A model generated the notes under the pieces. It ran no database searches and was not told the origin of the DNA. It worked only from the letters and a program-made list of their open reading frames with translations. From contig NW_020846508.1 in assembly GCF_003704095.1 (NCBI RefSeq), positions 1 to 64,000 of the forward strand: a stretch of 64,000 bases of DNA, in the 5' to 3' direction. Shown here piece by piece: positions 776 to 62,246 of the stretch; positions within the stretch are counted from its first letter, which is position 1; every line of letters starts with the position of its first letter. The position numbers and the translations under genes were made by a program. This stretch comes from Pocillopora damicornis. Its lineage: Eukaryota.

Positions 776-2498
776 ATGATGGTTCGCTTTGTGGTGCTGT
801 GTTGTTTCGTAACGATACCGATTTCTGGTAGGTACGCTTGTAAAGGCGAGTTCTTCTGTTAGAGTCTGTCTGATGCCGATAGTTTGTAGATTGACTCAGG
901 AAATAATATTCTTAGCGCCTCTTGAGAGATATGGATTGGAGTGCGTAAATTACTTTTGTCGTCCAGGTTTTAGTTATAGTTGTGCTCGTAGAGAACCTGT
1001 CTGAAATTTGGAAACGTGAAGCGATCGACTATAGAAGTTGAGAATTCGGTCATTCAGATTGGTCAAGTTCGTGGAACAGTGAAAACGCTGAATGGCACAT
1101 TTCACCGGTATCACTGAAACATTTTAAAATGCGTAGCTGTTTATTATTCAGTAGAATACAATCACAGAATTCATCTGCATAACCAACCTTAGAAACACTG
1201 AATAACATGGCTAAATATTTTAATGCAGAACTATTTATTTGCAATAACGGGCTACCGCCACTACAAAAGTGTCGCTTTTACGTCGAATCATCAAAACATT
1301 TTTCTCATCGACTGTCCATTCCGCATGGACAATATTACGCTAAACAAAGCATTTTTGTAGTGTTTTGATCTGTCTCAAATTGTATACATTTACTTGCGTG
1401 TACATCGTTCAGTTTCAACCTAAATAGCGCTCCCTATAAAAATTTCATATCGCGAATGTATGTTTTAACGAGATAATATTTCCCTCAAAGACAAGTTTAT
1501 TTCGTGATGTGGTCGAACAGAAACCGCACTATTTAAAATTGCCAAATGAACAAGGCTTGAGGGCATAGCTTAAGTTCCATTTGAAAAATAAAGCACTCCA
1601 AAGACGATCTTCGATATCATTGTTAGACTAAAATTTGCATGTTCTCGTGCGTCACGCAATTTGTTCCAAATGCATCGTAGGATGAGAGAAGAGCCAGTAG
1701 ACCACATGCCTTGGCAAAGTTCAAAATATGAACATGTTATGAAACAGTTTTACATACGACTATATAAATATTCTTTAAGGAAAGCTTTTGACCATAATTA
1801 TAAATTAATCACTTTAAAAAATGTTGAAAATGTCTCAGCGGTACTGGTTGTTGAATTGTTATCATGGTGTTTTCTTGTCACGCGATAATTAAACAACATT
1901 TACCATCTTTTTTTTTGCTTTCTTTTTTAAATACTTCTTTGAAATTTGCATCAGTTCACGACACCAAAATAAAGATGATTACATTTGACAGCTAACAGAA
2001 AACTAATACGTTACCAATCGTTGGTTGATTTCTACCAATTAAATGTCATGAAAATCATATAAAGTTCTATTTAAAAAATCATTAAACACCTAAGGAAGAG
2101 CAGATGTAAGGTAGCTCAGTCAAGAATGTTAGTTTGTTAAATCCGCATAGATTTTTTTTTCTTGCTCCTCAGAGTCTTGACTTGAAAGTAAATAATTTCA
2201 ATATTTTCTGTCTTCCTTTCTGACTCGCGACTCCTCTAACGTTAAATTTGTATGATGCTGTCATTTTAGTCACGTTGTAGAAAGAAAACATCCTTCTATT
2301 TCCTTTTGAGTACTTTGCCTTCTGACTTAATTTTCTTAGAAAATATCTGGCATTTCTCCATTTGTGTTACAAAATTATTCAGCTGCTTTTAGTGTCTTTA
2401 TAAATATGATCTTATTTCTTTTTAAATGTTTATATTTGCGTCTATATAATTACAATTACAAATAATGTTTAACAATAGGCCATTTCTGAATTACCTCA

Positions 2499-2530
<32 letters not shown>

Positions 2531-3693
2531 ATATGATAATAGGTTTTCATTCACATGCAAATAAAACTCAGTCTCATACGACTGGTTGAGCACCAGGCCT
2601 CGTTTTGAAAAAGAGGCAAAAGGTATTTCAGAATGACCGACCTGCAGGTTAGCGTACTGTAGCCTTACCCCCCTCCCTTCTTCCGTTACTCCTCTGGGGG
2701 AAGGGTACGGCTAAACGTGAGCTAACTAGAGGTGAATGGTGGTGGATGCTTACAGAGCTGCAAAGCGGTCAAGGATATATCAACCACTTTCACCCACAGT
2801 AGTGAATTATTAATTACTTCCGAACCCGCCAATCAGTGTGCACGAAAAGTACTATGTGTACTTATCTCGCTTGTTATTTATTAAATATCTATATTTATTA
2901 CCTAACTCATATTAAAAGCGATAATTTTACAATCGTAGCTTACTTTCGGCCCCACCTAGCTGAGTAATAAATAGATAGTAATCGGTAGTTATTTGTAAGG
3001 CAGAAAACACCCAAATATGATGCGCCAATCTTCCAACACAATTGGGTGTCCACATATCGCAAGGAGATATATCTAGGATATTAAAGAAGCTAGCTTTGAA
3101 TTGCCGAAAAAAACAATCATGAAGATTAGGAGTTTTTTCTGTTTGTAAGAAAACCCTTGCGAGGAAACACTTTTCTTTATTAAACAAAAATGGTCAAAAC
3201 TCTGAGACCAGATCAGAGAATTCCAGAATTGAACCCGCTATTTTGATGTAAATTTTCGTAGAAAAAGTCAATTCGATTTTTAGTGTACCTTTGTGATCGG
3301 CCTCCTCGTTAGTAGAGGGTGATCTAAACTTGATTATTTTCTGTATTTTCAGTCTGGACGCGGGAATGTTTCCACTGCCTTGATAAAGCGTCAAGATGCA
3401 AACCAGGCACTAACATCTCGACGATTCTAGAATGTACTGATCCTACTAATCGATGTTTTTTGAGGAAGGTTACAGGTGAAACAAGAGAAGGGGACATGAT
3501 AGAGCGAGGCTGTACCAATGAAGACGGCTGTGATATAATGATGAAAGCATGCGAAAACTCTGGTGATTGTAAAACTACATGCTGCCATCAAGACCTGTGC
3601 AACAGTGCCGTTACCAATGGCATTACGTCGAACACGTGCACATTCTTAGTTCTGTTGGTTATAATACTCATATTGAGGTGGGAGGTTTCTTGA
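776..3693 (+). CDS. Three-finger (Ly6/uPAR, LU-domain) protein 1, secreted and probably GPI-anchored, 130 aa, 2 exons
   Basis: Exon 1 776-827 encodes signal peptide MMVRFVVLCCFVTIPIS, then a phase-1 GTAGGT donor. Exon 2 3353-3693 follows ttttcag and reads in phase: VWTRECFHCLDKASRC...ERGCTNEDGCDIMMKACENSGDCKTTCCHQDLCNSA, then a hydrophobic tail FLVLLVIILIL. CxxC start and CC-x4-CN end are LU-fold hallmarks. Confidence 0.88.
2476..2640. mobile_element. Short palindromic MITE-like repeat in LU gene 1 intron
   Basis: Imperfect terminal inverted ends and a strong internal inverted pair (ttttcaaagcgagtcctggtgctca / tgagcaccaggcctcgttttgaaaa). Confidence 0.55.
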
Positions 3694-4067
3694 ATATATA
3701 CTTCAGAAAAACAAGGATCGGAGGGCATCAATTAATTTCACGCTCGTCCGAGTTTTCTTTCCCACCTCATGTTTGTTTACAAGTCTTCAAGCTCTCCTGG
3801 AAGAAATTCCATGATTTTCTAGGATTCCGTCTGCGTAACTGTGTGTGTTATATCACTTCAGTTCATTATTTTTTCCCAGACTTTCTCTACCGCTGAATTG
3901 GTGCGGACTGGATACTAACATCGAGAAAAGTCTAATTTTGTTTATATCCCGTACGAGCGCTAGTGCATCTTTGTTAAAAATGCGGATGTAAATAAGCAGA
4001 CACGACGCGTCAACGAAAAACTAATATTCCAAATTTTTTGACAGCGAGTCCACAACTCAAACTTGCA

Positions 4068-4190
4068 ATAATTAACAACTACTCACCGGACTGGGGGTGG
4101 CTAGTGGTGGATATTCACCGAACCACGAAGCGTCGAGGCAAATACCCTCCGCTGGCCACCGACACTGAGGTGAATAGCTATTTTACTATC
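4068..4190. repeat. Dispersed quasi-palindromic repeat; a related copy lies at ~2728-2820
   Basis: Both copies share ggtggtggat...gaagcg...gagg...ccac...cacc.ac..gtgaat. Confidence 0.5.
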
Positions 4191-5769
4191 TTTGAAACAG
4201 TGAGAGAATATAACACTAAAAGATCATTTTAATCAATTTATTCCTGCAACGACTACAGTATTTTCGTGCGCGTTGCCCGGGGGTAAATTTTACATGATAT
4301 ACTGATTTATGATAACATGACACCGACCCTCAGAATTAAATTTATGACCCAACTTTTCAGCTCGAGAATTTTTTAGAGATCAGTAGATACAAGGAGAAAT
4401 AATTTACGTAAACTTAAGTTCCATAACTGTTCTTCGGGCTTATCTAATTTATTTATCCTTACTTTGCAATTTGAATAAAAGAATTTGAACGAACGAGCTC
4501 CATCTTAAACTTGTCAAGCAGTGAGTTGACAACGAAACACTTCCTACAGCTTTTGAGGCCCTCCCAAAAGAACCATATCTTTTGCAAAACTGCGAAACAC
4601 ATTGGGGGCACTTTACAACACTCCTCAAGAGTCGTGCATGTAAATGTTAAATGACTTTGTAGGAATTATAAGCTTGGAAAGTTATTACGTCTGTTACATA
4701 TTGTAATACCGAAAAGGTGTTTTCATTATCCAGCTGTACTAAGCAGAGTACGAATAACGAGCTGACCGTGTACAAATATGACACGATATTGTACAGTTGG
4801 TTATTTTGTACCGTAAAAACCGGTCGGCTGTGCTTGCTACTCTCTCTAATTGCTCCGCTTTTCCAGCCTTATAAGAGATGCGCATGAAATAGAGCACTTG
4901 AAAAATAAATGACGTATTAGACATTTGAGTGTGAAGTATTGCTGAGTATTATCAGCCGTTGTTTGTATTTCAACAAAAATCCGTAAAAATACTTAGCGAT
5001 GCTACACACCAAAACATCAAATAAAATATACTTCATCAGTTAACTATAAAAAAAAAATGCGTTTCTAAATTAACGTTAGATCGAGTGACTTGTTAAAATT
5101 TGATCGGTTCTTTCCTTTACAGGGCGCTTTTTTAGACACTGGAATTGAGGACGACCGTGCACATTAAACGCGCTTAAATCTCACTTGCATGACTCAAACG
5201 CTTTCTATGCCTCGAAAACTTGGACTTTAGCTATAGCTCCATTTTTTGGAGCATATTGTGTGTGTCCTGGTCTTCTAAGCCAATGGGAACATGTGTTCCT
5301 CAAGACAATCACAAACAGACAGAAAAAAATAAAAGCAAACACTAAGCGTGAAACAACTCAGGTTGAGGGAAAAACCGCTGTGGATTATAGACTGGGTATT
5401 TTTATGAGGGGGACAGAAAAACCGAAACTCCAACCTCAGAAAAAAACTAAAGCCAAAACGTATGAGGCCTGCTCCTGACACCGGCTCCTGTGATAACACT
5501 ATGCCAGTTTCTAACAGGAAGACTTTTACCCGTTCTTCCATGCAGGGTTCAAATTTTTTTAAACTATGTGAAGCCGGACGACCGCTGTGAAATTATTCAG
5601 GAATTGTAAAAGTCGGTGACTGCACCTGTTTGCGGAGAATACGCGTTAATTAAATCACGCTGAGAAGTTTTGGAAAAAATAATCTGAGAGGAAACGTAGC
5701 TCTTCGTACAACTGGTTTAACATCATCGACGACAGCTAAATGTTAAGAGGGTCTCACGAAAAGAAATTG

Positions 5770-7709
5770 ATGGCAAATATGCTTGCATCGTTATGCGTCG
5801 TGCTTTTATCCATCAAAGGTAAGTAGGTTGTGCTGAAGTATAAACGACATAACTGCTGAAGATAAGTCGAGTTAAGTTTCAAGATTGTTATGGTGAAAGA
5901 ATTGTACGTTTGACGTAATTTCAAGATTGCTCAGACTTAAATTAATTTCCGCATTTCTATGGAGGCATTTTAGAACTGGTCGATGTAAAAACAGGTTTAA
6001 AATGACATGATCCCTTAAGATAAGATTTGCTAGACACTGACGCATATCAAACACTAGACGAATTCACGATTATTTCAAATTGTTGAACATCATTTTAGTC
6101 CTAGCTGTTTTCAATTAGTAAAGCAAACTATTTGGAATTGGAACTGATAAAAAAATTAGAATTTGAAAATAACGCATGAATAAAAATTCTGCCAATGTTT
6201 TTGTTATCCATTGTTTTGTTTCTTTTCTTTTGCAAAGAATCATTTTTCTCAATGATTTACTCATTTAAAGTCTTAAAACAGCCGCGGTTTAATTTGGGAT
6301 GAAGTAACTCTGTGTTCTATTTAAGGAACATTTTCCTGGCTACACTGAGCTTAACTTCATGGGTTCTCACCTTACATTTAGGTGAACCGAATTCCCAAGG
6401 CCATCTCCGCTTTTCGAAAAGAGGAGACCCTGGGAACGAGACTGTGTGTTTGGTCACTGTATAGCTCACTGTCTTAGTTTTTGCTTTTTTGCTTGTTACT
6501 CTGGGCTGAGGGGGTTGTAATGAGGATAACTCTAGTCCCAGGTTAATTGCATATAAATGCCTTATGACAGAATATGAAAGTACTCTCGATTAACCCTCAT
6601 CATGCTTAAAACAACTCGGCTCTGCATGTTTACTCAGCGGACGTTGGTTAGAGCTGAATGCCAACGTTCTTTGTTAAGGTGTGAGACAAAATCGTCGAGC
6701 AATCAAAAATGCGATACACATTAGGTTACCGCCCTGTTTACTCATTTTGATTCCATCGCAATTCACCCATCAGTAATTTTTTCCTTATCTTTCTCTAAAT
6801 CTTCATTTAAACTATTTCCCTTAGCGCCATTGATGTTTTATTGTAGAACTGTCATGTATCAGATGTTTTACATGCGATGAAGGCGGTGACTGTCGAAAAC
6901 AAATGGGAGAAGAGAAATGCCCTGTGGAACCACTACTGAAGGACAGGTGCATTGAGATAATGAATAATGAGAATGGACAGGTATTTGAGAGGAGTTACTT
7001 TGAATTAAAAGCAATGTTATCATTAATATCATATTAAGGAGTGTTTGTTTAATTCTAGAGTTTGTCTGCCAAGTCATAAGAATTCGAATCCATTTGGCAA
7101 TGCTTGATTCAAAGTAAATACAAAACATCATATGCTATCGTAACTATTTTTGATCAAATGAAGAATTACTGCCCTAGCGATAAAGGAAACAAAATCCTCC
7201 CTTCTCCCATTTTGCGCGTTAATCAGGAGTGAAAGCATGCGCATGATGCGAGATAAGAAATTATTCTGGCAGGTGAGCGGCAATCTATCAAATTTCTTTA
7301 AGTGCAGGTCATAAGCGAGGATCATTTATTTCCTTGTACACAATCCGCAAGTCAAAAAATTATTTATTTCATTCAATTGTGGTGCGCAAAATGACCAAAG
7401 TTTTGGTACATTGGATCTAGAACTCCATTTGAATATGATCTAATTGCCTGAAAGGAATATGATCGATGTCGCAATTCATTCCAGGTCGCCAAAGGATGCG
7501 CCAACATCAGAATGTGTCAGAAAGCAGAGAAAAATTGCAAAGAGGCCAAAGAAAGAAGGACTGGGGATTGTGACGTCACTTGTTGTACAGCTGACCTGTG
7601 TAATGCCGGCTCAAAAGGGTCCTCATCTCATTGGCTTCACGCGCTCTGCTTTCTCTTCTGTGTGTTGTTCTTAAACCTCCTCAAAACTGATATGATAAGC
7701 AACGAATAG
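5770..7709 (+). CDS. Three-finger (LU-domain) protein 2, probably GPI-anchored, 135 aa, 3 exons
   Basis: Exons 5770-5818 (MANMLASLCVVLLSIK, GTAAGT, phase 1), 6847-6980 (ELSCIRCFTCDEGGDC...KCP...DRCIEIMNNENGQ, GTATTT, phase 0) and 7485-7709 (VAKGCANIRMC...DCDVTCCTADLCNAGS plus hydrophobic tail). Phases are consistent. AATAAA near 7770. Confidence 0.87.
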
Positions 7710-8473
7710 AAAATCAACGATCAGAATAACTTATAAACAAGACAATGTTCTCCCTAGTATTAAGGAAACAATAAATTAAATAGTAAAAGAAGATGTACCC
7801 ATAAGAAGATTGCCCCATAATTGAAATTTATTAATGGCTGCAAATTTGCTAAAATTGCTTTTTAAGAAAAGCGCGTTCAGCAGTTTCTCGAACTTCACAA
7901 GCCTGGCACAATCATGTATATTCAATAACTAAGAAACATCTCGACTGCTTATGACATGTTACGGTCAACAACATTTGACCTTCAGTTATAGATAGGTTTC
8001 TTTCCAGAAGACATCCTTTGTTTTAACAGAAGAACTGACGTTTCCGCGCCAGGCATCCAAGCCATTGTAAGTCCCTGAAACTAGAAATGAGCTAAGTCTG
8101 ATCGTTTTTCTAGTTACGTATTCATAGATCTATAGCTTATGTCCACTCGAACACTTGTGATTTCTCCAGTTCGCTTAGGGATTCTTTCTCTGAGGCACCT
8201 TTGTCTTTCTCTTTGATTTGCAATAGGCAAAAGCTTTGTCTGGAGACTAACCATTTTCAAAACTGTAAAACCTTTGTCTGACCAAGAGTCATTTGTTATC
8301 GAATCTCTGACTTTTATTCGATGGCGCTCCCTTGCAAGTAAACGGAGAATTACCGACTACGAGAGACGATGACTTCCTTTAGTGAGCAAGCGCAATCTGT
8401 CTCGTGAAATTTACTCTCAAAAGTCGCACAAACAATATTTGTGCTCTTGTGAATAAATATAATCGACGTGCAC

Positions 8474-9295
8474 CTAGGAATGGCCATTTCCTATTTCAGA
8501 TTCTCTTAACAAGGGAAAGTTGATCAAGGACACAGCAGCAAATGATAGAACAATGATCCCTTGAAGATAGCCCCTCAGAATTTTGCCTGCGTTGCATAAG
8601 TTTCCATGACAACACTGATGTAAGCAGTTAAGATGGCCGTCGCAGTAGAGGTCAGGGTTGGCACAGTCACTGTCTGAAGAGCAATCCTTTGTAAACGTCT
8701 TTGTCACTATCTCAGATTTGTTCGAATTTTCTCCCCAGCTGTGAGTTTCTTCCTTAGTTATGGCATTGCAATGTTCAAACTTATAAGGACATATCCTCTT
8801 GATGATGTTTTTGTTACAATGTGCCCAAGATGTATTACTTCGACATGAAAAGCACGTTGACCCTGTAATTTAACAATACGAGGTTGGGTCTCTTTAAAAA
8901 AAAAAGAGGCTTTCAATTTTTACCTAACGAACTACGTATTTGTTTAAAGTTAGTACCTTTTACATGGCCATAAAGATGTGGTTGTACTGAAGGCTGAGTA
9001 GCTAGACATACCAAATAAACGCACACTTAGCTTTTATAGACATCGTTATTTATTCAGACACGTCACTTTAGAAACTCTTTTATCAAGAATGTACAACATC
9101 TACCTGTCACGAACCTCTTGTTGCTAGGATAGGAAGCAACTGCCATGGTGATCACTGTAACACACGAATTGAGGAGGCAAGTTTCTAAAGAAACTGTTGT
9201 GCTACGTCGGTGGGGGAGTGTAACAAGATAATTTGCTTTTATCAACTGAGTTGATGATGCAAATTGGCCACCATAAAGAGTTTCTAAACTGATGT

Positions 9296-9326
<31 letters not shown>

Positions 9327-11798
9327 GTGATAAAAATATGGCTTACACACATAAGTATGTGTTATGTTTATTGTGACCGATTGTAAACAATTTTCAATCA
9401 TTTTGATATTCTATTCTGTTATTTGTCAAAAGAAAAAGAAACCATCAGTATATTGCGAAGGTTAAACTGACCTGCGCAATAACCCCAGCCCGATCTGCTC
9501 AGATTCCTGTCAAATTCATTCTCTGTTGCACACCAGTATTCACCATTTGGATCATTATCAGTGGCTGCGCAGCTGATGTAGTCTTTACCAAGATATTTAA
9601 ACGGGAATTTGCAACATTCTCCATCTGTAGTCTTCACAAGACACTGCGATTTCCTCACTGCGTGAAGAGAAGACAAGTGAGGTCAATAAAACTTACTCCT
9701 CTGAGAATACCTTCTTGAGATCTAGGTCAACTGGATCGATGAGATTTAAAGGAAGCTTACATTTGCAGTAGCCCCAACTGGTAGTTTCGTTACTGCGATG
9801 TCTAACGTCTTCAGTGGCGCACCAAAAGCGGCCCTCGGCGTCCCCATTATTCGTGCATTTCTTGTATTTTACTCCTTTGTAGCGGAATGGAAATCGACAG
9901 CAGTGATAATCAACCGTTCTCTGGATACAGGCCGTATTTCTCTCTGTGACAACACTTTCTGAAACGAGTACAAAAGAATAAAATGAATATGCACCTTGGG
10001 AAAAAAGACAAAACTGCGCAGTCAGATGCACAGTATGCCCGGTAAAACTGCTCTCGGCCTAAGTCAGGGACGGTTTTGAGTGAAAGGAGATGTATAATAT
10101 TCAGCAGCGGAGGAAGGAAAGATGCCAATGTTGCGGAATTCACTCAAGATACAGTGAAGCAGTGCTTCCCTCCTTTATGAGGGACCTTAGGCAGTCAGGA
10201 CGGCAACGTCAAAAAAGACGTCGATTAAAAAATAAATTCGTATTTTAAGTTAGAATTTCGCGAATGGCTGAATGTCTTCACCATCTCTTACGGCGCCAAA
10301 CCTCAACTTTTACATAACGGATGTGAGCAGCGTTTGGTTCCCAAAGGAGACTTAAATAATTTGCCGTCGGGGTTTCCGCTCTAAGACCGCGCAAAATTCG
10401 GGGGGTTTCTTGATCCCATGTTGTTGTTTTGCACCGAGAGTAAGAATGTAGAAAGTTTTGAAAACTCACGTGCTGAGCTCAAGTTGTTCTGCCCATTAAT
10501 AGGTTTTTTGTTTTTGCCACGTCCTCGTTGCCGTCGCTGTCGTGGTTTGCTATTAAAAGACCCCTTTTATCCGCGATATGCTTAGATGTAGGCTTTTCCT
10601 TGATTCGAACGGCGTGATTGCAAGGCACATAGAGACATTTTGCCGAAACTTTTTGAAAAGAGTTCACTTTCGTTCTAGAGTCTATTTTCTTACCAGATTT
10701 TTACTGAACTATTAATGGAGCTAAACATGTTCTTGGCTTGTTTCGAGCACAACAGGGAGTTTTAATATATTCAAATATGACACAAGACATTTCACCGCAA
10801 TCTTTGCGTGACCATCGTAACCGACATGACCTATACATATCTACACGTGAGGATCAATGTATCGAAATTAAGACATAGCATAACCCACAAACTGACGAGT
10901 TTACTTGCAGTTCTGATATCACTTACTATCACATTATGCTGGAATATTGCGGCATCCGATATTTCTCAAACTGAAGCAATTGGAAATCGACTTTCCACTG
11001 AAGCCATCAAAATATATAAATAGACAAGAAAACGATTTTAACTAGCTTTCGCAAATATCGACACCTGCTGTTTTATGAATATTTAATCTGACGGGCAACC
11101 TACCGTTTTAAAGTTTAACTTTGATAAAAGGGATCTAATTCGCACCCCGTCGGGTCTTTCATTGAGATTAATCCCCTGAAACAAGAAAGCCCATCTTTTC
11201 CTGATTTCTTTCCGTACCACTTCATTGACCCAAAGTTAATAAGCAACTCCACAAACACATTCACATGGCTTATTCACTCTTGAGCAATTCCTAAATTTCT
11301 GAATTAAACATGACCATGCCATGGTGAATTAGTTTTTCCTGTTAAATTTGACGTCTTTTAGCTTTATTTCAGGTAAATCGATCAGCAAGACTCTCTCTAA
11401 ACTATGAATGAGTCAGGATATATTACAACCACGGTATCTCCATTTCAAACAGTTCCTACGTATGTTATAAACAAGCCGCATCTTTAGCATGCAAGCTCTT
11501 GGCAATTAACCCTTCGGCGTGTTATTCCCCCATCAGAAGTTAACTATATTTGTCCTTCTGTGTAAGAACTGGTCTCAATTCATCGAAGTTAAAAGTTTGA
11601 ACAACTTCCGTCGAAACTGCTTTCTACGAAACGTGTTGAAATAAATCGCAGCTAATGGATGACGAAAGAACTAAAAATTTGGCGTTCAGTCAAGAAAAAC
11701 ATATTTTTCTTCGATAGCTTGCAGAAGTATTCTTCCTTACCTGTGAAAACATAAGTCAGTACTGCGACAAACAAACGCGTTGCTCTCGCTTTCATCAT
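8474..11798 (-). CDS. Signal peptide-FN2-FN2-LU(three-finger)-GPI protein, 276 aa, 4 exons
   Basis: Exons 11798-11741 (MMKARATRLFVAVLTYVFT, GTAAGG), 9958-9761 (FN2: CCRFPFRYKGVKYKKCT...FWCATE...WGYC), 9657-9472 (FN2: CCKFPFKYLGKDYISC...YWCATE...WGYC) and 8862-8474 (LU: TCFSCRSNTSWAHC...CCHGNLCNAG plus hydrophobic tail). All three introns are GT-AG and phase 1, giving one continuous 831-nt frame. Confidence 0.88.
9178..9326. repeat. Dispersed repeat family (copies at ~46705-46925 and a fragment at 58952-58985)
   Basis: Shared gaaactgt(t/g)gtgct(a/g)cgt..gtgg..gagt.taacaaga.aattt...tatcaactgag.tgat...tg(a/t)cgttt.g..cgttagccctt. The 46.7-46.9 kb copy contains an internal inverted repeat. Confidence 0.65.
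10180..10565. mobile_element. MITE-like element in intron 1 of the FN2-FN2-LU gene
   Basis: Imperfect TIRs agggaccttaggcag..gacggcaacg / cgttgccgtc...tttgct..aagacccc; no ORF of note. Confidence 0.5.
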
Positions 11799-12724
11799 AA
11801 GCTATCTCCACGGTGAATCGTCAATGGCCATCTGGCAGTGTCGAGGTTATCGTGGCTCAAAGATGCATTTTTGTCGCCTTGAATGTGATTGGTCATTAAT
11901 GTTTCAACTCACTCAAGCATGCTAATCATCGACAGTCGATAGTTATCAATAACTCAGAACTCTTATAACTAAGCTGATGTTATTTCAGACCAACATGAAA
12001 TAGTTGATCACGGAATCAAAATTAGAAAGGTTATCACTGCGACACAGGCCATTAGATTAGTCATGGCTGAATGCCTTCAGCTTTGTTTAAAAAAACGTTT
12101 TGAGTGCATTTAGGGGTAATATTGCCCACGGCACATAATAATGACGATGAGCTTTACATTTATCCCTAAAAATTGTCTCCTTCAATTTCCTAATTCCTTT
12201 TTCATTTATTTTGAAATTCCAATCATGTTTTCTGAAGTTTAAAATTGACAGAACAGCCAAGGATTTATTTCCCTTTTTTAATAATTTTTAATTTAACAAT
12301 TCTGGTAGTGCCGCGATTGTACCCTCTACTCGAAGTCAAAACATGAAAGGAAAAGTTTACTCATTCTTAAAATAGTGAGAAACTTAACTTTTATTGATAC
12401 TCGGCTAAAAGAGTTAAAAGTGAAGAAAGCTCCAAAGGGATAAATCAAACAAACAAACAAACAGACAAGAAACAAGCGATTCCAAACAAATCAAAAACAA
12501 CGTAAAAAGAATCAAAAATCGCCTTTTGTATTCAGTCAGTGTTTTCTGGTCGGCGAAAGTTCATCAAGCGTTCTCATAATGATTTTACTGCTGCTTAATG
12601 AGGACATTATTTGACAAAGATAGATTCCTTGTAAGAGGGCGTTTAAAAATTAATTTGCACCAGCTAGCACAGGCCATTCAATTTTCCGAAACATTTGCCA
12701 TTTAAAAACAGCCGAACATCGAGG

Positions 12725-14165
12725 ATGTCACTACGAATATATCGAATTTTCCCTGGCGTGATAATGTTCCTCATAGCACTGTCACCATTATGTAAGTAAA
12801 CATAGAATTTTCCATCATTCAATCCTCATCTGAATGTTGGACAAGATCCCCTCAAACCGACCGATTAGGGATTGTTGCAAGTCCAAGTTTTGTTTAGCAT
12901 TTTTGTATTTTAGAAGCGGAACGGCTTGAACTTTCAAGCATTGCATTGAATCTCTGGTTTACAAACCAAATTAAAAGGAAAAAAAGATGGGGAGACGAAA
13001 GGCGTTGATGTCCGTACTGCATTCCATGTCAATTTTTGTTGGTTTCAAATGGTTTTATTTTACATGAAATCGTATAAACCCAGGGTCGAGTGTAAGGGGT
13101 TTTTCTAAAATCATCTCAAAGCATGACGAGTCACATAACTCACGTTATCAGGTTCTTATCAGGTTATTCACATGCAGCTCATGAATCTTTTTCTTAAAAT
13201 CTCGACAAGATCATTTTTAATCCTTCTTCACGTGTTAAGGACTCATTACTCGAAACAATTTTCTTTGGCCAAGTTAAAGTTTCGAGTATTTTCAAAATGG
13301 CCGAGGAAAGCATCATTTCCCCTTATCTTAAAGAAATTAAGCAATTTTATTCATTTTAAAGCTCAGATTGGGAGAGTACACTTGAAACAGAAATCACGCA
13401 CTGCACCGTATAACCTATTTATACATCAAAAACGGCATAAGTTTTGGACTTTTAAAAAAACAAGTGATTGTACTGGATTCCATCACGCCGGCCTACTTTT
13501 TCTCGTAACTAACATGAATGCAATTGCTATTGTGTACGGATTGAATTAAGATGTGCAGTACATGCACCGTTAGTGACTGACTTACTGACGGACTGATGGA
13601 CCGAGAGATTGACGGATCGAAGGACTGACGGATGGACTGACAGAGTGACTAACTGACTGACTGACTGACTGACCGACCGACTGATTGACTGAATGAGGAA
13701 GAACGGAGACTAAACGACCTGATTAATCGGCTGGTTGGCTAGTCGATGTGTTTATTAGTTTGCCATTTGTTATTTTTCGTCGGTTTTTTAGGCTCTTTGC
13801 ACTTGTGCTATTCTTGTCCAAAGACATCATCCATGGAAGAATGCAATGCCCAGATGACCCAGTATAACTGCTCCAACTTGGGTGCCTATCACAAAAAGTG
13901 TGCGCGCTTTTGTGATTGGAAAAATGGTGTCTATACACGAGAATGCGCAATGGAACACAAGTGCACGGTAATTCAGAGGGAATGTAAAGAAAGAGAGGAC
14001 ATGAAGAATAGCAAACAAAAAGAGCCTGAGTGCGAGTACAAGTGTTGTGATGGGGAGCTGTGCAATACTCACCCCTGTAGTGTGGGGCAGAGTCTTCGTC
14101 TACCACTGAGAAGCATTGTGGGACTCTCAACCGTCTATTTCATTTTTATAATCTGTTTCGATTAG
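12725..14165 (+). CDS. Three-finger (LU-domain) protein 4, probably GPI-anchored, 146 aa, 2 exons
   Basis: Exon 1 12725-12791 (MSLRIYRIFPGVIMFLIALSPL, GTAAGT, phase 1). Exon 2 13792-14165 after ttttttag: CSLHLCYSCPKTSSMEEC...CEYKCCDGELCN...IVGLSTVYFIFIICFD. Confidence 0.85.
13575..13725. repeat. Degenerate (GACT)n tetranucleotide microsatellite
   Basis: ctgactgactgactgactgaccgaccgactg, directly upstream of the acceptor of LU gene 4 exon 2. Confidence 0.85.
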
Positions 14166-15736
14166 TCTGAAAGAAGTAATAAAGTTATACTGAATCATTT
14201 TCCCGGTAAAAATTTATGATTCCCTTTACTGGAACAAAAGTGCTCGAATTCTATACACCGATCGTCAAATGAGGAAAATTTGAGACATTCATGATCAGAG
14301 CTCGAGGTTTTTCGCACGTCTTTAAATCGTGACACTTTATACATTCCTAACCTGAGAAAGGTTCTCCCTATGGGATGATCTGCACATCAAGCATAGTCCA
14401 TTTTCCTAAGCCCCTAGGAACAGAGATTTAAGCGGGGGGAGGGTTAGAGGGGGGAAATCACACCCAGTCTACAGAGCGTCCGTTCTCAAAAGTTAACTTC
14501 CAATGGAGACCCCCCCTGCAAATTCCCTCCATTAACCGAAGTCATACCCAAGCGGGAAGCCATAATGGGAAAGATAAATAGAACTGATTAAAGAGCAGCA
14601 GGAAAGGAATGGCAAAGTTGTTTCAGTCAGCACAGTGACAGCTAATTTTTGTGGTTATTCGCTCCAAGACCCCTAATTCACTGACAAACACTGCAGTATT
14701 GCTCTCAGAGGTGCAAGAGAAGTAATAATAAAATGACAGACAAAAAGCTGTTTTATAAAACTATTAATTGCTGTTTATTGAATACTTGAGATTACACACA
14801 GCCATCTACACCTAAACATACCATACATTCTTCCTGGAGGAATTCATTGAGAATACATACATGTAATTTTGTTCGCACTCAAGTTAAGGGCAAAAAAAAA
14901 ATTCCTTAGGGGAGACACACATCCCAAATCCCAAGAAAAAACTCCTAATTTCCACACTTTTCAGTCACCTCCGTTAATTCACCAGAACTTTTACTGCACT
15001 TTCTTTATCAGGCAAAACAATTTTACCTGCATGAACAGATACACACACTAAAAGAAATAAATGCAACCTATGATCTGTGAACAAAATTCAAGTGCATAGT
15101 TAATCAAAGCAAATACCATAAAGATCGGAAGTGTCAAGGAAACAGGTGCGCATTACTCAGAAGACATATGAATTGCATTTAGGGGAAGGTTGCTAAACAT
15201 CAGCTATATCATGTTTAAGAGTTGAAGCCACGGTTTTTAATTTCCTTACTCACTTGATTTGGGTTCCTGTTTAATTCTTCACAACAGTTGAATCTTATAT
15301 TTTGTATCAACTACACCTACTAAAACTAACAAGACCACTGATTTCACAAAAAATGTTTCACTACCTTGTCTTTTTGCATGTTTAAGAAAAGAGATTCCCT
15401 AGCTCTGTATCCAAATTATAGGATAAAAATAAAGAACACAGATAGGGATGTAGAATTTGCAGTAAAACATGAACATTTTCAAGTGGTTTTACTTTGCACA
15501 TCTCTAATATATTGAGTGTACAAATTTTCAAGGCTACAATTGCTCAAAGGAGCTATTTTTTGCAATTTTCTGTCCTAGCAAGAGAACATCAACAAAAAGA
15601 TAAACATAATGTTTTAAAATATAGAAACAAAACTCCTTCTGTAGACACAGGCCAGCCAGTCTTAATTGTCTTAATGAAGAAAGATGAAAAAAATGGAGTG
15701 TCCACTCAAAAATAAAAAATGACATGATAGAAAACC

Positions 15737-18700
15737 CTAGCCTTCTGCAACCAATCGGGCTTTGTTCCAGGCATTTCTGATGATCTGTTCCACTTGTGCT
15801 GCCTCTGGGTGACGCAGCACATGAGGATGGAATGCACCTGGGTTGGGAGGCTCACCCTCTTTCTGCGCGGCACTGGAGTCATGGTCATCAACGTACATCT
15901 CCAGCTCGGACGCAGTACAGCAGCACAAGCATTTGCGAGTTTCCTTCAACTCCAGATCCTTGAAGAATCGATAGTCCATGTACTCTGTTCGAACTGAAAG
16001 CACAGTTTACATGAAAATCACATTTCCTGTCTAAGTAAACTTGAAACCATTCAATAATATAACAATTTCACTAAAATTTTTCATTGTCCAAACCAAATAA
16101 AAAAGTATGAGCAATGCATGTTGATAGATCTTTAATGACCACATATAGCTACTTTCTGCTATCATGTAAATAAACATTGTTGCTAATTAAATAATAGTTA
16201 GAGATGTCTCAAAATTCTTCTTACAAGTGTAAGACTGTCAAGCACTCATCTATTGAGAATCACAAAGCTCAATTACACAAGGTGGGGAGGTGGATACTTA
16301 CGATGATAAAACTGTCTAGCACCCAAGGGATAATTAATAGTGATCAGGAGAATTGCTTCTCAGATTTTGGGAAAGAAAAGTCTAACCCTTTACACTCTAA
16401 CAGCAAAATGCATATTCTCCATACTGTTCTCTATACATATCCCAAGGTGCTGACAAGGAGAATTTGTCTAATTAACAATCAAGAACTTCTTAAGTTGGTG
16501 ATCATTTCCTTTGTTCTCCCTACCTATATATTTGATTCAGTGGTGTTCTTGTAAGGAGAAATTAGTTGAAAGAACACAAGGCACTCAGCCAATTAATTCA
16601 ACATGAGGAGCTTTTGTTACTTAGGGTCAGAAGAAAAGCATTTTCTCAAAAAGAACTCTGAAAAAACATATATGTGAAATGAATATATATTCTTACAAAA
16701 AAAAAATTGTTTTCTAACCTTCCATCCACAGTCCACAGGGTGGTTCGCGCTTGTAGAATACACCTTGTCCTGTGACACGCCAGAAAGTCTTGGCCAAACA
16801 ACATGGACAGCAATACGCCACACAACATTCTCCACAGTCTTCTTTGTACCGAATTCCAGGAGCTGGTGTAACTCCAGACCACTTGGAAGCACTGAGTTCG
16901 GCTTCCTTCTTTTTCCTCTTCAATAAACCAATCAGATCCATCAGATAAAGTCTGTCTCCCAGAACAGTGATGCCAAGCTCATGCAGATGACCCTGGAGAG
17001 AGTAAAAAATTAATTACAATTCCATAAGTTTTTAAGGTCCAGCTATGAGAGATTTACAGTCAATTAAAAATGAAAAATGTAGATTTACTTCACTTCACAG
17101 TGGCACATGTGGGAGAAATGCAGTCATATTTTCACACCAAAAAGAATTTAACAAGCCAGCTTTTGCCCAGGCTAGAAAATCAACACACCCTCAAAAAACC
17201 CCTCTGAGCAAAGACAGTAACCAAACATAGACAAAAGCCACCTATGAAGCAAGATTGTGGAATTAAATACAGACTGCCACCAAGGAAGGGTAATGCTTGC
17301 ACCACTGCACCAACAATGCACTCCACTACACTTCTTGAATGGTATTACAAACATGTATTACCTATTCTGACATTCAATTTCATTCAACTCTGAAGTTGCT
17401 CACAATTTGACCATAAATAAATAGATGGAATAAATCAAAGCATCAGCTTGTACTACTTTCCCATTGAGAGAATAACTCTATTCTTAACCCTTTCACTTTA
17501 GGAGTGACCAAGACATAACTTCTCCTTACAGTATCAATACAACATCAAGCAGCCAAGTGATGAGAATAACAAAATTTTAATTAGTAACTAGGGAATTATC
17601 TTTAGATTCTACATCAAATTCTCAAAGAAAACTCTATAAGAAATGTTTGGCAGACAGTAAAGATAATTTCAGTGAAAGGGTTAAGAACTAATCAAACAAT
17701 AACTTATTTAAAATTTTGCCAAATTTTGATCATCGAAACCCATATTTGTCCCTGGCATGTCCCAAATATCATTCAAACCCACCTCTGTCAAAAGCATCAG
17801 ACATTTTCCAGTGATCTTGTTCACTGAGAACTGCTCTGCCATATAACCCAATCCAGCACGTTCAAGAAAATTCCTGTTCACATCCTCTACAGACCAAGCT
17901 GTTGAAAAAATTGACAAGCAACACCAAATTAGTGTTGATCGTCATATTATAAGCTATTGATTTCAATTTCATTTCAGTTTGTCTTCTATAATACATGCAA
18001 GTACACCTGCAATGGGAGAGAAAGCACAAAATATTTAGTAAAAAAAACTGAGGAAAAACTGATAACTAGGAAAACAATTTTGAAGATAACAGAGGAGTTT
18101 CAAATTCATGATTAAATTATGAATCAAAGAACTGAAGTTGCAGAATTGCCACTAGTAAGTGTACCTTCTATCATTGTGGTGCAAAAATATAAAACAGCCT
18201 GGACATGAACTTGGAACAAGTAAATGGCACCAAAGCTTTTAAGAAACATTTAATTACTGAATTAATGAGCAATATAGGACAAGTTTGGACATATCATTGT
18301 AAATAGCTAATTTCTTATATTTTTCTGTGATTCATTTATTTATTTTCTGTATTTTGATGTTGATGCTGAAGATCCCTCTTCAGGGATACTCAGTAAAAGT
18401 GTTCATATGTATTTATCCCATTAAAGATCTCCTAATGCAGGCTTCCGTAGCCAATTCCAATATAATTGTTGGAAAGAAAGCATGAACAGCATCTAATCAA
18501 TTTATCCTGAAAAATGTTATATGAAAGAAAATTTAATTTCTAAAGCAGAAACATACAATACATAATTATCCAAAATATTTCACAATTGTGCAACAGATCT
18601 CATCATTCCTTGATGTGCCCCTTCAAGAATGTCACGAGTGGCACAAGTGATCGCATCTGAGTAAAAAGTACTTTAAAAATTCAATCCTCGTTCAAGAGGG

Positions 18701-22803: not shown

Positions 22804-28181
<5,378 letters not shown>

Positions 28182-52473: not shown

Positions 52474-53217
52474 TTACAGTCTCGTTAAGGACTCATTAAT
52501 ATACGTCTTATTTGAAGACACTTCACTGTATTCACTAAGTTTTCGTCTTTGAAGCAATCTTGGATTACTCGTCGTTTGAACAGCGGTCATGGCGGTGACG
52601 TCTGAATGCCTGCGAATCGCATTTTTAAAAGTATTACCCGGTAATTTTGTGCCAGCTTGGTCAACCGTCGTATCTTTAGGGTCTCCCTCTTTGTTTTCTT
52701 GCCAGGATTTCTTTTGGTGAAATATAATGTTGGGCATGGTCGGGACGTTATCCGTCTGTTGACGCGAAGATAGCACAGCTCCTGGCATAGAGGTGAAGTG
52801 GATCGAGTCTGCACTGCTATGGCGTGGAAATGGTGAGGCTGGAAGACTGTGCCTTTTGATTAGCACGGATAGAGGCTCACTGGAAGTGCTGCAGGTTTCA
52901 TCCAAAGAAACAGTTCTGTGGATTGGACGTTTGGTTTGAGTTAACTCTTCAGGGTGTGGTCGTTCTCTATCAGCAGTTTTTTGTCCATTCCCGTAAACCT
53001 GAACTGCGCTGATCTTTTGAGGCAAACTTTCTCTCCGTTTGAGTATCTGCTTCTTGAAATCTTCCTGTCTTCTAACAATTTGCTTCAAAGCCATCTTCTT
53101 CTCCTTGTCAAGCTGTTCTAACACAAGCGACAGGTCTTCATCTTGTTTGGTGTTCCTATCGATGGCTTTCCTCATATCAGCTGTAGGCATGAGGTAACGG
53201 GGCAACTGGTCTTTCAT
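52474..53217 (-). CDS. RRxS-rich coiled-coil family paralogue B (247 aa, intronless)
   Basis: Long ORF with the family N-terminal block LPRYLMPTADMRKAIDRN..QDEDL...LEQLDKEKKMALKQI.RRQEDF...RRESLP. TATAAAA on - at 53313-53307. Confidence 0.85.
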   Translation of the reverse strand: MKDQLPRYLMPTADMRKAIDRNTKQDEDLSLVLEQLDKEKKMALKQIVRRQEDFKKQILKRRESLPQKISAVQVYGNGQKTADRERPHPEELTQTKRPIHRTVSLDETCSTSSEPLSVLIKRHSLPASPFPRHSSADSIHFTSMPGAVLSSRQQTDNVPTMPNIIFHQKKSWQENKEGDPKDTTVDQAGTKLPGNTFKNAIRRHSDVTAMTAVQTTSNPRLLQRRKLSEYSEVSSNKTYINESLTRL

Positions 53218-55343
53218 GTCTGTACACAGAAATATAAGGAGTGTGTTTCAATACGATGGATGTTTAAGGTGTTAGGCAATGATACTAGAGAGCTGTCCGT
53301 GCTCGCTTTTATATCGTAACGGTGCATTCTTGTAAGCGCGTATTGTTCAGACACAAAAAAGAACAATTCTCTTCTCGAATGATGGATCTTATTTGTATTT
53401 TAGTGCCGCATCAGCGCTCGTTTGGAAGGTAGGTTGAATAGGAACACATAGTTTGATTAGTTTTTTTTTATGTTGTAATCGCTAATCCCATTAGCTCTAA
53501 CTTTGTACCACACGTTACAAGTACCGGCAAATTTAGCGTTGTTTTGAATAAACTGTACGATAATTTTTATAAACACAATGTGTACTTGCACCCGCTACTT
53601 ACCAATCTAAACCGGTAATTTGTCTTCGTAAACTGTACGGCAATTTCGTAGACATGTAATTATCTACTTTTAAAATTGCGAATTAATAGTAATTGACTTC
53701 ACACAAATGTCACTAGAACAATATGTGATCGATTGCTTTATAAATGGCGTAGGATCTAAATTTAGCTTGAAAGGATAGAAACTTATTTCCATGTCTGAAA
53801 AGAAACTGCTTACCTTGTTTTCAGGGCTTGAACATAGACTACAGGACTGGGAAGTTTCACAGCGCGTGAGGATATGAGCAGTCATGAGCAAGTGCATTTA
53901 TTTGTGGTACATGCTTAACGTTCACTTTTCGAGTTGGATCCGTGGAAAACACAATTCTTTCGCCTTACTATTTTCTCAGTGAAGGGCGGGCTCATTATGT
54001 ATTCAATGCACGTCGCAGAACGTCTAAATCTGTTCTTCGGCTGCATCTTTGTAAGAAAAGGAACGTGTGAAAAACGTGAGCTGAGAAAATCTTCAGATAG
54101 CGCAGGCGACCCGGAAGTGTGTTGTAATTAGACCGTTAGCAAGATAAACAATCCGTGACCACTTCAGTGATTGCGAGAGCTTGTAATTCAACAATTTAAT
54201 TGAACAGTGTACACGTCCTACCTGTGAAATTGGACAATACGCGTCATGTGTGTGCATTTTACCGAGTTAACTGATGTTTTTTTCAGTATAACCCATGGCT
54301 AGTTCGTTTCTTAAATTTTGTTATATTTTGATTATTTGGCAACAAGTCTTCGTGTCGTCGAATTGTATCTGTAAACACACTCGTGGTTAACTCGTGATTT
54401 TGACAAAGATGTATTGCAGCCGGAGAATAAATCACATTTCCAGTAAATAATTGAACGGTTTCTAGAGTGTAGTTTGGGTATTTTACGTGCATAACGGTTT
54501 GACAATATACAAAAATGGACAATAACATAAAAGGTACAGCACATTACAGTACACATATTGACTAAGTTTAGATGTTACAATAGAGAGTACTCAAAATGTA
54601 TTGTTTTCCTTCACAAGCGCAGTATGTAATTGAAGAGTTCAGCAGAGAAAACTATATTTTATACTGTGCTTGTCAAATAACTCAACACTAAAATTTTCAG
54701 TAAGGGCTGCATTTACTTTTCATAAAGTTTCGGCTATTGCGGTATCAGCTCAGTATGCCACAAAATTAACATTCATGCATTTCCTCCATAAAATGGTTAG
54801 AAGTCTTTGTTTCCCGGATAATTTTGTTCAGCAAGCGTAAAATTTCGGCGAATAAACTGAGTATGAATTGAAATATTAGTCAATGTTGCACCAAAATGCT
54901 TCCTCTTCACATTACATTTCGCAGGATCGTAGCTTAAATTAATGGAGGTTAGGTTGCGAAATATGAATTTTAAAACAGTTGCTTAATTTCTTGTCAAGTA
55001 AAAGTTGCCTGAACCATTTTAACATGAAAAATCCTCGTTCACCTCACTATTAGTATTTTTTAACATTACAGGTAATGACTCAGAATTCTAACAAATTTTT
55101 CCGTGTTCATGACCTTCACAAATTAGTGTGAAGACCAGCCAGGGAGGTTGCTAAGCTCTTCTGAGCTCATTTTAATCTTCCAAAACAAAGCAGCGAACAA
55201 TGGCTTATTATACTCACCAAACATTTTCTGTTTATTTAAGGAACTATTTTAAGCCTGTTTACAATGCAGACTAGTTGCATTACTTGACGAGCAGGTAGAT
55301 CAACAACAACATATCTTTCTGCGTCTCAAATTCTTTAACAACC

Positions 55344-56045
55344 ATGAAAGAAACACTTCCAAGATTTCTCCTCCCAACCGCCGATATGAAAAAAGCCATA
55401 AACAGAAACGCGAAAAACGATGAAGATCTTTCGTTTCTTCTTAAACGAATCGAGAAAGAGAAAAAAGTCGCACTCGAGCAAGTATCAAGACGACAGAAAG
55501 CTTTCAAAAGAGAAATGATTATGAGACGCGAAATTCAAAGCAATATAAACCTAAATTGTCAGTTCTTCGAACACACAGATTTGACGAATAAGAAAGACAA
55601 CGAGAAGGCGCGCCTTGATATTAACCTTTGCAACCGTCGGCGCAAACTTGGAACTGCACAGGGGCTACGAAGAGCATCTTCTTTTGAAGAAAGCCTCGCT
55701 TCTTCCAAAATTGAACTACCTCCCGTCAGGACCAAAAGATACAGCCTGCCAGCATCTCCAATACAGGCTGGATGTAAAGAAGAAGAGCTAAGAGTGAAAA
55801 GTCTGAAAATTGATAAGCCGTTTCCAACTCCCAAAGTTGTTACTGATTTCTGGACAAAATCGCGAAACTATGAGGCTACAAATCTTTTTCGACGGCACTC
55901 GACTACTACCGCAGGAACGTTTGTGCACGTGGACAACAAATCAAAACTACTTGATCGACGACACACTTCACTTCATAATTTAATGCCATTTTCAACCGAG
56001 AAACACTTCTCTGAAGAGGAAACTGTTGTACGACTACCCTTTTGA
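55344..56045 (+). CDS. RRxS-rich coiled-coil family paralogue C (233 aa, intronless)
   Basis: Starts MKETLPRFLLPTADMKKAINRNAKNDEDLSFLLKRIEKEKKVALEQVSRRQKAF; contains KRYSLPASP and RRHS, shared with B. ACCATG start context; AATAAA near 56133. Confidence 0.85.
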   Translation: MKETLPRFLLPTADMKKAINRNAKNDEDLSFLLKRIEKEKKVALEQVSRRQKAFKREMIMRREIQSNINLNCQFFEHTDLTNKKDNEKARLDINLCNRRRKLGTAQGLRRASSFEESLASSKIELPPVRTKRYSLPASPIQAGCKEEELRVKSLKIDKPFPTPKVVTDFWTKSRNYEATNLFRRHSTTTAGTFVHVDNKSKLLDRRHTSLHNLMPFSTEKHFSEEETVVRLPF

Positions 56046-57659
56046 TCAAAACATTCAGCCAGTACGCATAAATTTTTGTGGATCGGAATTGACGTTTAGA
56101 TATCTCTTTGTAATTAATCAGCTTTTGCTGATTAATAAACACGGTACTTGTCCCAGATTTCTTGATTGATTCCTCTGCTTAGAGATTTTAACCTTAACAT
56201 ACTAAATGGGTAAAAACGTGAATCGTCAGTTAGCGGATGATGTAATTTTTAGGGCAATTTGATACCTTCCCATGGTTTCTTTGTCATTATCGCTCGGTCA
56301 TTTCGCATTTCAAACATAGAGTCAGAGATTTGGCAATCGGGCATGCGCGCTAGTCTAAAGCACTCTCTAAGATACATGCGGCCAGAATCATTTGAAAATA
56401 TGTGGGTTTTTTTGCCATATAGATATTAGTCAACTTAAAAAACGAGTTTGAAACTAATATTAACGGCTTAATAGCATCACTAAAAACAACATTTATTTTG
56501 GGTTACCGATTGACAAAAAAAGACGACACCTCATTGTCCAATAACGTGCACAGTGCTCTTAAAATATGACCACTCTCTGTTGCCCTTGAGACCTCATTAT
56601 TCTCTAACAAAGAAAATTCTGCTGACTTCATGACAATACAGAGATTACGACTTAACAATGGTCATCGGTGGTTTAAACATATATATGTGCAGGATTAGTA
56701 TATTTTAAGAAATGGTATACAATTTATTAATTTCTCAAAACAAAAGATTTTGAACGCAAACGTGAATAATCCCAGCACCTTTACGTTGCACGTGCTGCAT
56801 TTTGTTTTGGGAGAGCAGTTCCAAAATACCCTCTGCTAATCCATTTCTAGTAGCTTATTTTGCAACGTTTTTTCGGTTAACTGTTCATTACGTACATGCG
56901 TACTACATCTCGCACTATTTTTAAATGCTCCTGGGAATGAAGTCAGTTGGAAATGAACAAAAAACGTTGTGCATGCTTGAATGTGACCGCTTCTTTCCTC
57001 CTTTATGATGAGTTTCCTACAGTCATTTGGTCATCAGCTAAAAGCTTGGCGTAAAAACGAGATATTTAAGAGCACATAAACCCAAAAAGAACTCATTTCT
57101 TATGGTTTAAAGTTCTATATTTTTTATTACTTTCTCAATCCTTCTTAACGATTTCATTCGCCATTTCCATCGGATGTGAAAAACTCGGCGGCGCACTTCA
57201 GTTGGAATGAAAAGATTGCAAAATCGCCCATGGAAAGAATAGCTTGTAATTCACTGATTCGGAAACAAAACAGGCCTAAACGGAGTTCCAATTTTTAACT
57301 CACTCTAATGAAGTAATTCAAGGGTAATTGTTCATGTTAAATGCAGTCATTGTATTAAAAACTTTTAGGGCTCAGATCAGCATTTTCGTATGACGACCAT
57401 TTCTGCAGTTAAACATGCAACCAAAAAATTCTCATAATGATTATTCAGGGCGGGTAATCCAGTCTTTTGGTGCACAGAAGAGGCTGTTCTGGTTGATTGA
57501 ATGTTTCATTAATCGTGCTACCCTGAACTAACACGAAAACTACATTAAAGGAATTATTTGAGTGTACCGCATCCAATGGCAAGGTGCGAAATATATTGTA
57601 CGTGATCAACATAGCGTTTTAAAGCAAACAAACGTAATACGACAAATCTTCGACTACAT

Positions 57660-58851: not shown

Positions 58852-58951
58852 NNNNNNNNNNNNNNNNNNNNNNNNNNNNNNNNNNNNNNNNNNNNNNNNN
58901 NNNNNNNNNNNNNNNNNNNNNNNNNNNNNNNNNNNNNNNNNNNNNNNNNNN
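58852..58951. other. Assembly gap (100 N)
   Basis: Run of N. Confidence 0.99.
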
Positions 58952-62245: not shown

Positions 62246-62246
62246 T

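Follow-up and report, generated by a model that had tools for sequence, protein, structure and literature searches.

A tandem FN2-LU protein of stony corals, annotated as a collagenase, in an ordinary Ly6 cluster of Pocillopora damicornis

The first 64 kb of a contig of Pocillopora damicornis (NW_020846508.1, positions 1 to 64,000; contig C3143 of the genome G000), hereafter the window, carry four genes of the Ly6/uPAR (LU) family between positions 776 and 14165. They form an ordinary Ly6 cluster including one conserved, mislabelled and apparently undescribed fusion of fibronectin type II (FN2) and LU domains of stony corals. This fusion, gene 3, has four exons and encodes a protein of 276 amino acids (AA) with the order signal peptide, FN2, FN2, LU and hydrophobic tail. 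The order is established by three joints (8861/9471, 9657/9761 and 9958/11741), all of them present in each of seven RNA runs. These belong to a set of 18 runs that matched the stretch 7450-8900, of which eight were examined: seven RNA or probable-RNA runs from six studies and one DNA-like run (X15), whose contigs read through the introns and contain none of the gene 3 joints. The RNA evidence consists of assembled contigs, which record presence only and not level, strand or cell type. The original prediction, made from the letters of the stretch, described four genes composed of a signal exon, a phase-1 intron and an LU domain with a hydrophobic tail. The four LU domains with their terminal CC-x4-CN motif, the tails and the phase-1 introns are retained here, whereas the signal-plus-LU structure of gene 3 is wrong, two FN2 exons (9958-9761 and 9657-9472) lying in between; this fusion, the most unusual trait of the cluster, was not part of that prediction. 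An initial scan of the window had given a Pfam fn2 match at 9696-10058 (-), inside the supposed intron of gene 3. Both FN2 exons score above the Pfam cut-off and all gene 3 introns are in phase 1. The features of the cluster are the following.

776..827, plus strand: gene 1 exon 1, predicted signal peptide, phase-1 donor (joint 826>3352, GT..AG, 4/4 RNA runs)
3353..3693, plus strand: gene 1 exon 2, 12-Cys LU domain and hydrophobic tail (PF00021, 25.6 bits)
5770..5818, plus strand: gene 2 exon 1, predicted signal peptide, phase-1 donor (joint 5816>6845, run X3 only)
6847..6980, plus strand: gene 2 exon 2, first half of the LU domain, phase-0 donor (joint 6977>7482, run X6 only)
7485..7709, plus strand: gene 2 exon 3, second half of the LU domain (12-Cys) and hydrophobic tail (sequence model)
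11741..11798, minus strand: gene 3 exon 1, coding part, predicted signal peptide (joint 9958/11741, 7/7 RNA runs)
9761..9958, minus strand: gene 3 exon 2, first FN2 domain, phase 1-1 (PF00040, 47.9 bits; joints in 7/7 RNA runs)
9472..9657, minus strand: gene 3 exon 3, second FN2 domain, phase 1-1 (PF00040, 42.6 bits; joints in 7/7 RNA runs)
8474..8862, minus strand: gene 3 exon 4, coding part, 12-Cys LU domain with a long loop II, hydrophobic stretch and 15 polar residues
7080..8473, presumed minus strand: likely long 3' untranslated region of gene 3 (unspliced RNA contigs joined to gene 3 exons)
12725..12791, plus strand: gene 4 predicted exon 1, signal peptide, phase-1 donor (sequence model only)
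13792..14165, plus strand: gene 4 exon 2, LU domain (12+2 Cys) ending in a hydrophobic tail (protein predicted at 146 AA)

The gene 3 model is identical, letter for letter, to the database protein P0004 (276 AA). Its cluster has 56 members, 40 of which were read; the three named ones come from P. damicornis, P. verrucosa and P. meandrina, and two of these are labelled '72 kDa type IV collagenase(-like)'. A Pfam scan of P0004 detected fn2 only and no protease domain (the LU domain also escaped it). An identity as MMP-2 or another gelatinase was rejected: neither a peptidase M10 nor a hemopexin domain is present and other domains account for the 276 residues. Judged by this domain content, the collagenase name is a mislabel. 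The suggestion that annotation easily misses such genes does not hold for gene 3, which RefSeq did not miss but misnamed. The correction matters for expression studies in which gene 3 would be read as a collagenase.

The LU segments were located by a six-frame scan for Cys-rich stretches ending in CC-x4-CN. Four lie within 776-14165 and, tails included, they occupy 3353-3693 (+), 6847-7709 (+), 8862-8474 (-) and 13792-14165 (+). Exon models with canonical splice sites lead to proteins of 130, 135, 276 and 146 AA for genes 1, 2, 3 and 4, respectively. Genes 1, 2 and 4 are on the plus strand and gene 3 on the minus strand; genes 2 and 3 are convergent, while genes 3 and 4 are divergent, with start codons 927 bases apart and the predicted exon 1 of gene 4 placed head-to-head with gene 3. 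In the exon models, every gene of the cluster begins with a short hydrophobic exon followed by a phase-1 intron, and the LU domain of gene 2 is interrupted by a phase-0 intron. An in-frame hydrophobic stretch just 5' of the gene 4 LU exon was rejected as a signal peptide because it includes a good acceptor and resembles a pyrimidine tract, which is not a proof. A fifth CC-x4-CN match (9189-9251) is not a gene: it is an open stretch of 21 AA within a high-copy repeat. Such repeats occupy two segments of the gene 3 introns (window 9180-9330 and 10180-10550), with summed depths in the thousands and hundreds.

RNA contigs also contain the joint of gene 1 (4/4 RNA runs, from four studies), a gene with a near-identical P. 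meandrina protein (P0018). For gene 2, splicing was found in one of the seven runs for intron 1 (X3) and in another one for intron 2 (X6). Gene 4 has no cover in the seven runs, which were picked by the gene 2/3 stretch and whose contigs cannot show absence. The proposed junctions are thus seen for genes 1 and 3, in single runs for gene 2, but not for gene 4. One gene 3 contig reaches position 11989, beyond the coding part of exon 1. At the other end, the contigs that carry gene 3 exons continue without splicing as far as 7080-7271, within intron 2 of gene 2. They cross the last exon of gene 2, suggesting a sense-antisense overlap of the two convergent genes. Next to gene 4, a well-covered transcript occupies window 14749-16000; it has a poly(A) end near 14749 and is likely transcribed from the minus strand, converging on gene 4.

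The hydrophobic first exons of genes 1-4 are predicted to encode signal peptides and, with a hydrophobic tail after the LU domain in 4/4 genes, the cluster proteins are probably secreted and anchored in the membrane. The hydrophobic stretch is followed by 5, 8, 15 and 1 residues in genes 1, 2, 3 and 4. A glycosylphosphatidylinositol (GPI) anchor is likely for genes 1, 2 and 4 and for the single-FN2 paralogue described below. Gene 3 may use either GPI or a short transmembrane helix, the latter suggested by its 15 polar residues after the hydrophobic stretch. Its single-FN2 relatives end 0-2 residues past this stretch.

The FN2+LU layout is conserved in other corals. A second gene of this type is present in the same genome (G000:C3405:235136-236046, L034), where the signal exon is followed first by a single FN2 exon and then by an LU exon with 12 Cys. 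Its LU domain is identical to that of a full-length protein (P0201) and 72-80% identical to those of relatives that include Montipora, Porites and Oculina; it is therefore more conserved than that of gene 3. A profile built from four FN2-LU proteins, in a search that depends on shared words, retrieved 69 hits, of which 68 were examined together with P0004. Both domains occur in 14 sequences from 13 clusters, six with two FN2 domains and seven with one. The single-FN2 clusters include Montipora foliosa, Porites lutea and Oculina patagonica, while Pocillopora is the only named source of the two-FN2 form. These genera belong to both main stony-coral lineages. None of the vertebrate-named hits among the 68 examined carries an LU domain, and the ESM Atlas yielded no cluster with FN2 and LU (feature hits all below 0.9). 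In a scan of 36 stretches around FN2 exons, covering a part of the 75 FN2 matches of the genome (a single stretch for the C2706 array, C317 left out), an LU exon was found only in C3405. The C2706 array (G000:C2706:19454-64354) is a run of 26 consecutive FN2 exons, all on the minus strand, and possibly encodes one very long poly-FN2 protein.

Literature searches, whose coverage excludes most subscription journals, showed no description of an FN2-LU fusion among the papers listed, and the gene identifiers tried led to no paper. The main text of a 2026 survey of invertebrate LU proteins (PMC13719153) names Kunitz, C1q, fibrinogen, Ig, MAM, thioredoxin, permease, 7TM and other partners. FN2 is not among the partners given in that main text; the supplements may list such proteins. 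Another layout absent from the main-text list is that of P0119 (409 AA), in which an LU domain is combined with a pair of LDL-receptor class A repeats.

Membership of the Ly6/uPAR family, as first proposed, is borne out by the Cys core of the four domains and by the model of the gene 3 domain. All four carry the eight core Cys and the C-terminal CC-x4-CN. Counting in the LU domains agrees with the 12 aligned Cys reported earlier and with two more in gene 4: genes 1-3 have 12 each, and gene 4 has 13 up to the CN plus one 5 residues beyond. The extra Cys of gene 4, in loop II and after the CN, are both kept in its three likely orthologues and would form a seventh disulfide. Gene 1 exceeds the PF00021 cut-off (25.6 against 24.8 bits), and so does P0069, a relative of gene 3, whose score is 31; gene 2 was scanned as two exon pieces. 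The LU family profile matches uPAR, Lypd6 and Lynx2; a search of the PDB with the single sequence of gene 1 returned only chance matches to ribosomal S28. An AlphaFold2 model of the gene 3 LU domain (34-row alignment, predicted local distance difference test (pLDDT) 92.7) was compared with 48,161 chains. Lypd6b ranks first (Z 9.2, root mean square deviation 3.1, 82 aligned), tied with CD59 (Z 8.9) and uPAR (Z 8.8), and the first 39 rows are all LU, three-finger toxin or TGF-beta receptor domains. The domain is thus, as modelled, a three-finger fold. A homodimer prediction for the gene 3 ectodomain gave a score of 0.23 (mark 0.32).

The 12-Cys frame itself is not new. According to PMC7582953, human Lypd6, Lypd6b and Lynx2 have six disulfides, the additional ones lying in loops I and III, and PMC9410279 also gives six for starfish Lystar5. 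The claim that 12 Cys exceed the known LU range is therefore not supported, while the proposed extra pair in loop III is supported: its spacing equals that of Lypd6 and Lypd6b, whose loop III disulfide is shown in PMC7582953. The Lypd6 spacing derived from that source (2,8,8,6,18,5,4,10,2,0,4, against 2,8,8,6,28,5,6,5,3,0,4 in gene 3) matches genes 1-3, and the coral disulfides are predicted by this correspondence. The frame is the default in this genome, where 27 of 31 other distinct LU domains have it; two have 10 Cys, one has 11 and one has 12 in another spacing. These 31 domains derive from 30 loci and one further set of sequences, after removal of L032, a duplicate of L003. PF00021 has at least 42 matches in G000 (many of them clustered), of which 27 exceed the cut-off; the true number is higher, as all four window genes are missing from these matches. 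PMC13719153 counts 563 three-finger proteins in 13 cnidarian genomes, or 43 per genome. With such numbers, both the frame and the clustering are ordinary. They also suggest that the Lypd6-type six-disulfide scaffold may be old rather than a vertebrate addition.

The window genes look like old paralogues. An LU profile run against 1.84 billion representatives retrieved 130 hits. A tree of LU domains (61 rows, 86 columns), in which many forks are unresolved, groups gene 1 with five relatives (support 95/99), gene 4 with three (100/99) and gene 3 with seven (98/98). Gene 2 stands alone on a long branch. It has no clear orthologue: its best identity outside the Cys is 45%, to P0096, an LU protein with another spacing, and the next best is 32%. 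Each window gene shows a long stem and short tips. Likely orthologues share 47-78% LU identity with the window genes (38-73% without the shared Cys; 61-64% for P0028, P0029 and P0037, those of gene 4), against 26-43% (13-31%) among the window paralogues. The residues between the Cys, described as almost unalignable, are hard to align among the paralogues, but each gene aligns well to its likely orthologues. The conserved likely orthologues of genes 1, 3 and 4 therefore point to old paralogy. In gene 3, the LU domain and the second FN2 domain diverge at similar rates, the first FN2 domain slightly more slowly than the LU domain; in 14 full-length sequences of the Pocillopora cluster, 6/91 LU positions vary against 6/128 in FN2. 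The same genome contains other Ly6 clusters (C4293, C1899, C1708, C4076, C2873 and C3272). Those on C4293 and C1708 contain close, recent duplicates and make stronger candidates than the window for a diversifying locus.

LU proteins serve at the cell surface as modulators and co-receptors, and FN2 domains hold their ligands in an aromatic pocket. We consider it somewhat better than an even chance that the gene 3 protein is a membrane-tethered adaptor, in which the FN2 pockets would hold an extracellular ligand while the three-finger domain would engage a membrane receptor. Both ligand and function are inferred. Gelatin binding by Endo180 is abolished by Y193A, R206A/D208A and Y219A (PMC4635314), and the FN2 pair of PDC-109 binds choline through Trp and Tyr (PMC2823774). 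The Endo180 positions were mapped by Cys offsets, checked on MMP-like hits. In the 19 FN2 domains of coral FN2-LU proteins, Tyr193 is Tyr in 18, Trp225 is Trp in all 19 and Tyr219 is aromatic in 14, while the Arg206 position never holds Arg. The pocket aromatics, mapped to the PDC-109 numbering by Cys positions, are mostly kept, and phosphorylcholine binding itself is predicted. R-x-D is rare both in ELSPBP1-named hits (3/101 FN2 domains) and in the coral proteins (1/19). This rarity and the missing Arg206 slightly favour a choline-type lipid headgroup, as in the seminal BSP proteins, over gelatin as the best guess for the ligand. Within the adaptor model, the headgroup may thus be placed only somewhat ahead of a matrix ligand. 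The fusion could have arisen when FN2 exons, symmetric in phase (1-1), were inserted into the phase-1 intron of a Ly6 gene with two exons; exons and genes would then have been duplicated. The single-LU genes would be receptor modulators or co-receptors of the usual kind, each having long kept a partner of its own.

Several observations weigh against this picture of a conserved adaptor among old paralogues. Among the differences listed between the RNA contigs and the window, 11/15 coding differences are non-synonymous, including 6/6 in gene 3, and a tree in which the cluster genes form one clade is not rejected (approximately unbiased test, p-AU 0.063). The sister relation of the two LU groups with FN2 is weakly supported (91/11), so the fusion may have arisen once or more than once. 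The missing Arg is not specific, 40/41 other FN2 domains of G000 also being without R-x-D, and the first FN2 domain of gene 3 is without the Tyr219 aromatic. The LU domains of genes 3 and 4 fall below the Pfam cut-offs (PF00021: 16.4 for gene 3, none for gene 4). For the gene 3 LU domain, Foldseek ranked the same kinds of protein as the structural comparison above, none of them at E<=0.001. The full-length AlphaFold2 model of gene 3 (two-row alignment) has a pLDDT of 38.7 and is unusable. In gene 3 and 2/5 relatives, 13-24 residues follow the hydrophobic stretch, a poor fit to a GPI signal.

Other explanations attribute different partners to the same domains. A fairly unlikely one, though not one to neglect, makes gene 3 a matrix anchor (on mesoglea collagen or the skeletal organic matrix) or an uptake co-receptor, similar to uPAR and uPARAP in one chain. 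Endo180 and MMP-2 bind gelatin through FN2 (PMC4635314), the nearest solved FN2 relatives are MMP-2, MMP-9 and fibronectin, and Pdcyst-rich, a localised coral Ly6 protein, is placed in the calicoblastic ectoderm by PMC2728513. Against this stand the Arg missing from all 19 domains, the lack of a cytoplasmic endocytic domain in gene 3 and the absence of the Pdcyst-rich peptide motifs from the window. The LU domains might instead modulate cholinergic or other ion channels, as do Lynx, Lypd6 or Lystar5, FN2 serving only to concentrate gene 3 on membranes. The shared six-disulfide frame and the first rank of Lypd6b as a fold match would agree with this, but the frame is the family default in the genome, Lypd6b is tied with CD59 and uPAR, and gene 3 scores 16.5 bits with PF16975 (Lypd6), far below the cut-off of 31.5 (genes 1, 2 and 4 have no match), so that we regard it as quite improbable. 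In Lypd6 a conserved N-x-I motif is responsible for LRP6 binding; N-x-I/V does not occur at a shared position across gene 3 and its seven relatives.

Even less probable is the fast-diversifying recognition locus (gamete, allorecognition or symbiont) of the original prediction. The low identity of the paralogues outside the Cys, the excess of non-synonymous differences, the variable length of loop II among gene 3 relatives and the unrejected single clade could all be accommodated by it. The strongly supported likely-orthologue groups of genes 1, 3 and 4, the LU identities of likely orthologues, which for gene 3 resemble those of the FN2 domains, the 6/91 LU against 6/128 FN2 positions that vary in the Pocillopora cluster, and the long stems with short tips, unlike the recent duplicates on C4293 and C1708, argue otherwise. 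Venom or toxin-like proteins are hardly credible: the fold is common to snake three-finger toxins, but all four genes have a hydrophobic C-terminal tail and toxin structures score below GPI-type LU proteins. A bolder version of the adaptor, which we hold to be a long shot, would join an FN2 pair similar to that of sperm-binding proteins, gripping choline or betaine headgroups, to a Bouncer-like three-finger domain, bridging the membrane of a gamete or algal symbiont to a host receptor. Such a coral membrane-recognition receptor would be built by exon shuffling and, if true, would be a concrete candidate for coral sperm-egg or symbiont recognition. For Bouncer/SPACA4, gamete-restricted expression and a role in sperm-egg binding are reported. 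According to a preprint (bioRxiv 10.64898/2026.07.18.739195), an Ly6h-like gene rises in heat-stressed alga-hosting cells of Stylophora.

Elsewhere in the window, five or more related open frames, distributed over both strands (49318-62840), share an initial LPR(Y/F)L-x-PT motif; their only Pfam match is a weak CFAP95 hit below the cut-off. A minus-strand exon at 27424-27801 has weak leucine-rich-repeat matches.

Compared with known systems, the cluster is closest in its LU frame to Lypd6, Lypd6b, Lynx2 (Lypd1) and Lystar5, which have a single LU domain and 12 Cys, the extra pairs being placed in loops I and III. It differs by an identity of about 26%, by scores below the Lypd6 Pfam cut-off, by the two FN2 domains of gene 3 and by the two additional Cys of gene 4. 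Snake three-finger toxins are secreted without a C-terminal anchor signal, whereas the four coral genes have hydrophobic tails. Pdcyst-rich is likewise a Pocillopora Ly6 protein, and a GPI anchor is predicted for it (PMC2728513). Three short motifs of its antibody peptide are absent from the six frames of the window and from the loci and proteins examined; since the window does not contain them, Pdcyst-rich is not one of the four genes. BSP, PDC-109 and ELSPBP1 are secreted vertebrate proteins. They share with gene 3 a tandem FN2 pair, the mostly kept Tyr and Trp pocket positions and the rarity of R-x-D, but the ELSPBP1-named hits have no LU domain, while the pair of gene 3 is followed by an LU domain and a hydrophobic tail; the similarity is at domain level only. 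MMP-2 has FN2 repeats in common with gene 3, which is devoid of its catalytic and hemopexin domains. Finally, uPAR and Endo180/uPARAP bring LU domains and an FN2 domain to the cell surface as two separate vertebrate proteins, whereas the corals carry both, without the gelatin-binding Arg, in one small chain. FN2-LU joins modules that vertebrates use for matrix uptake and fertilization, and is therefore a compact candidate for work on corals.

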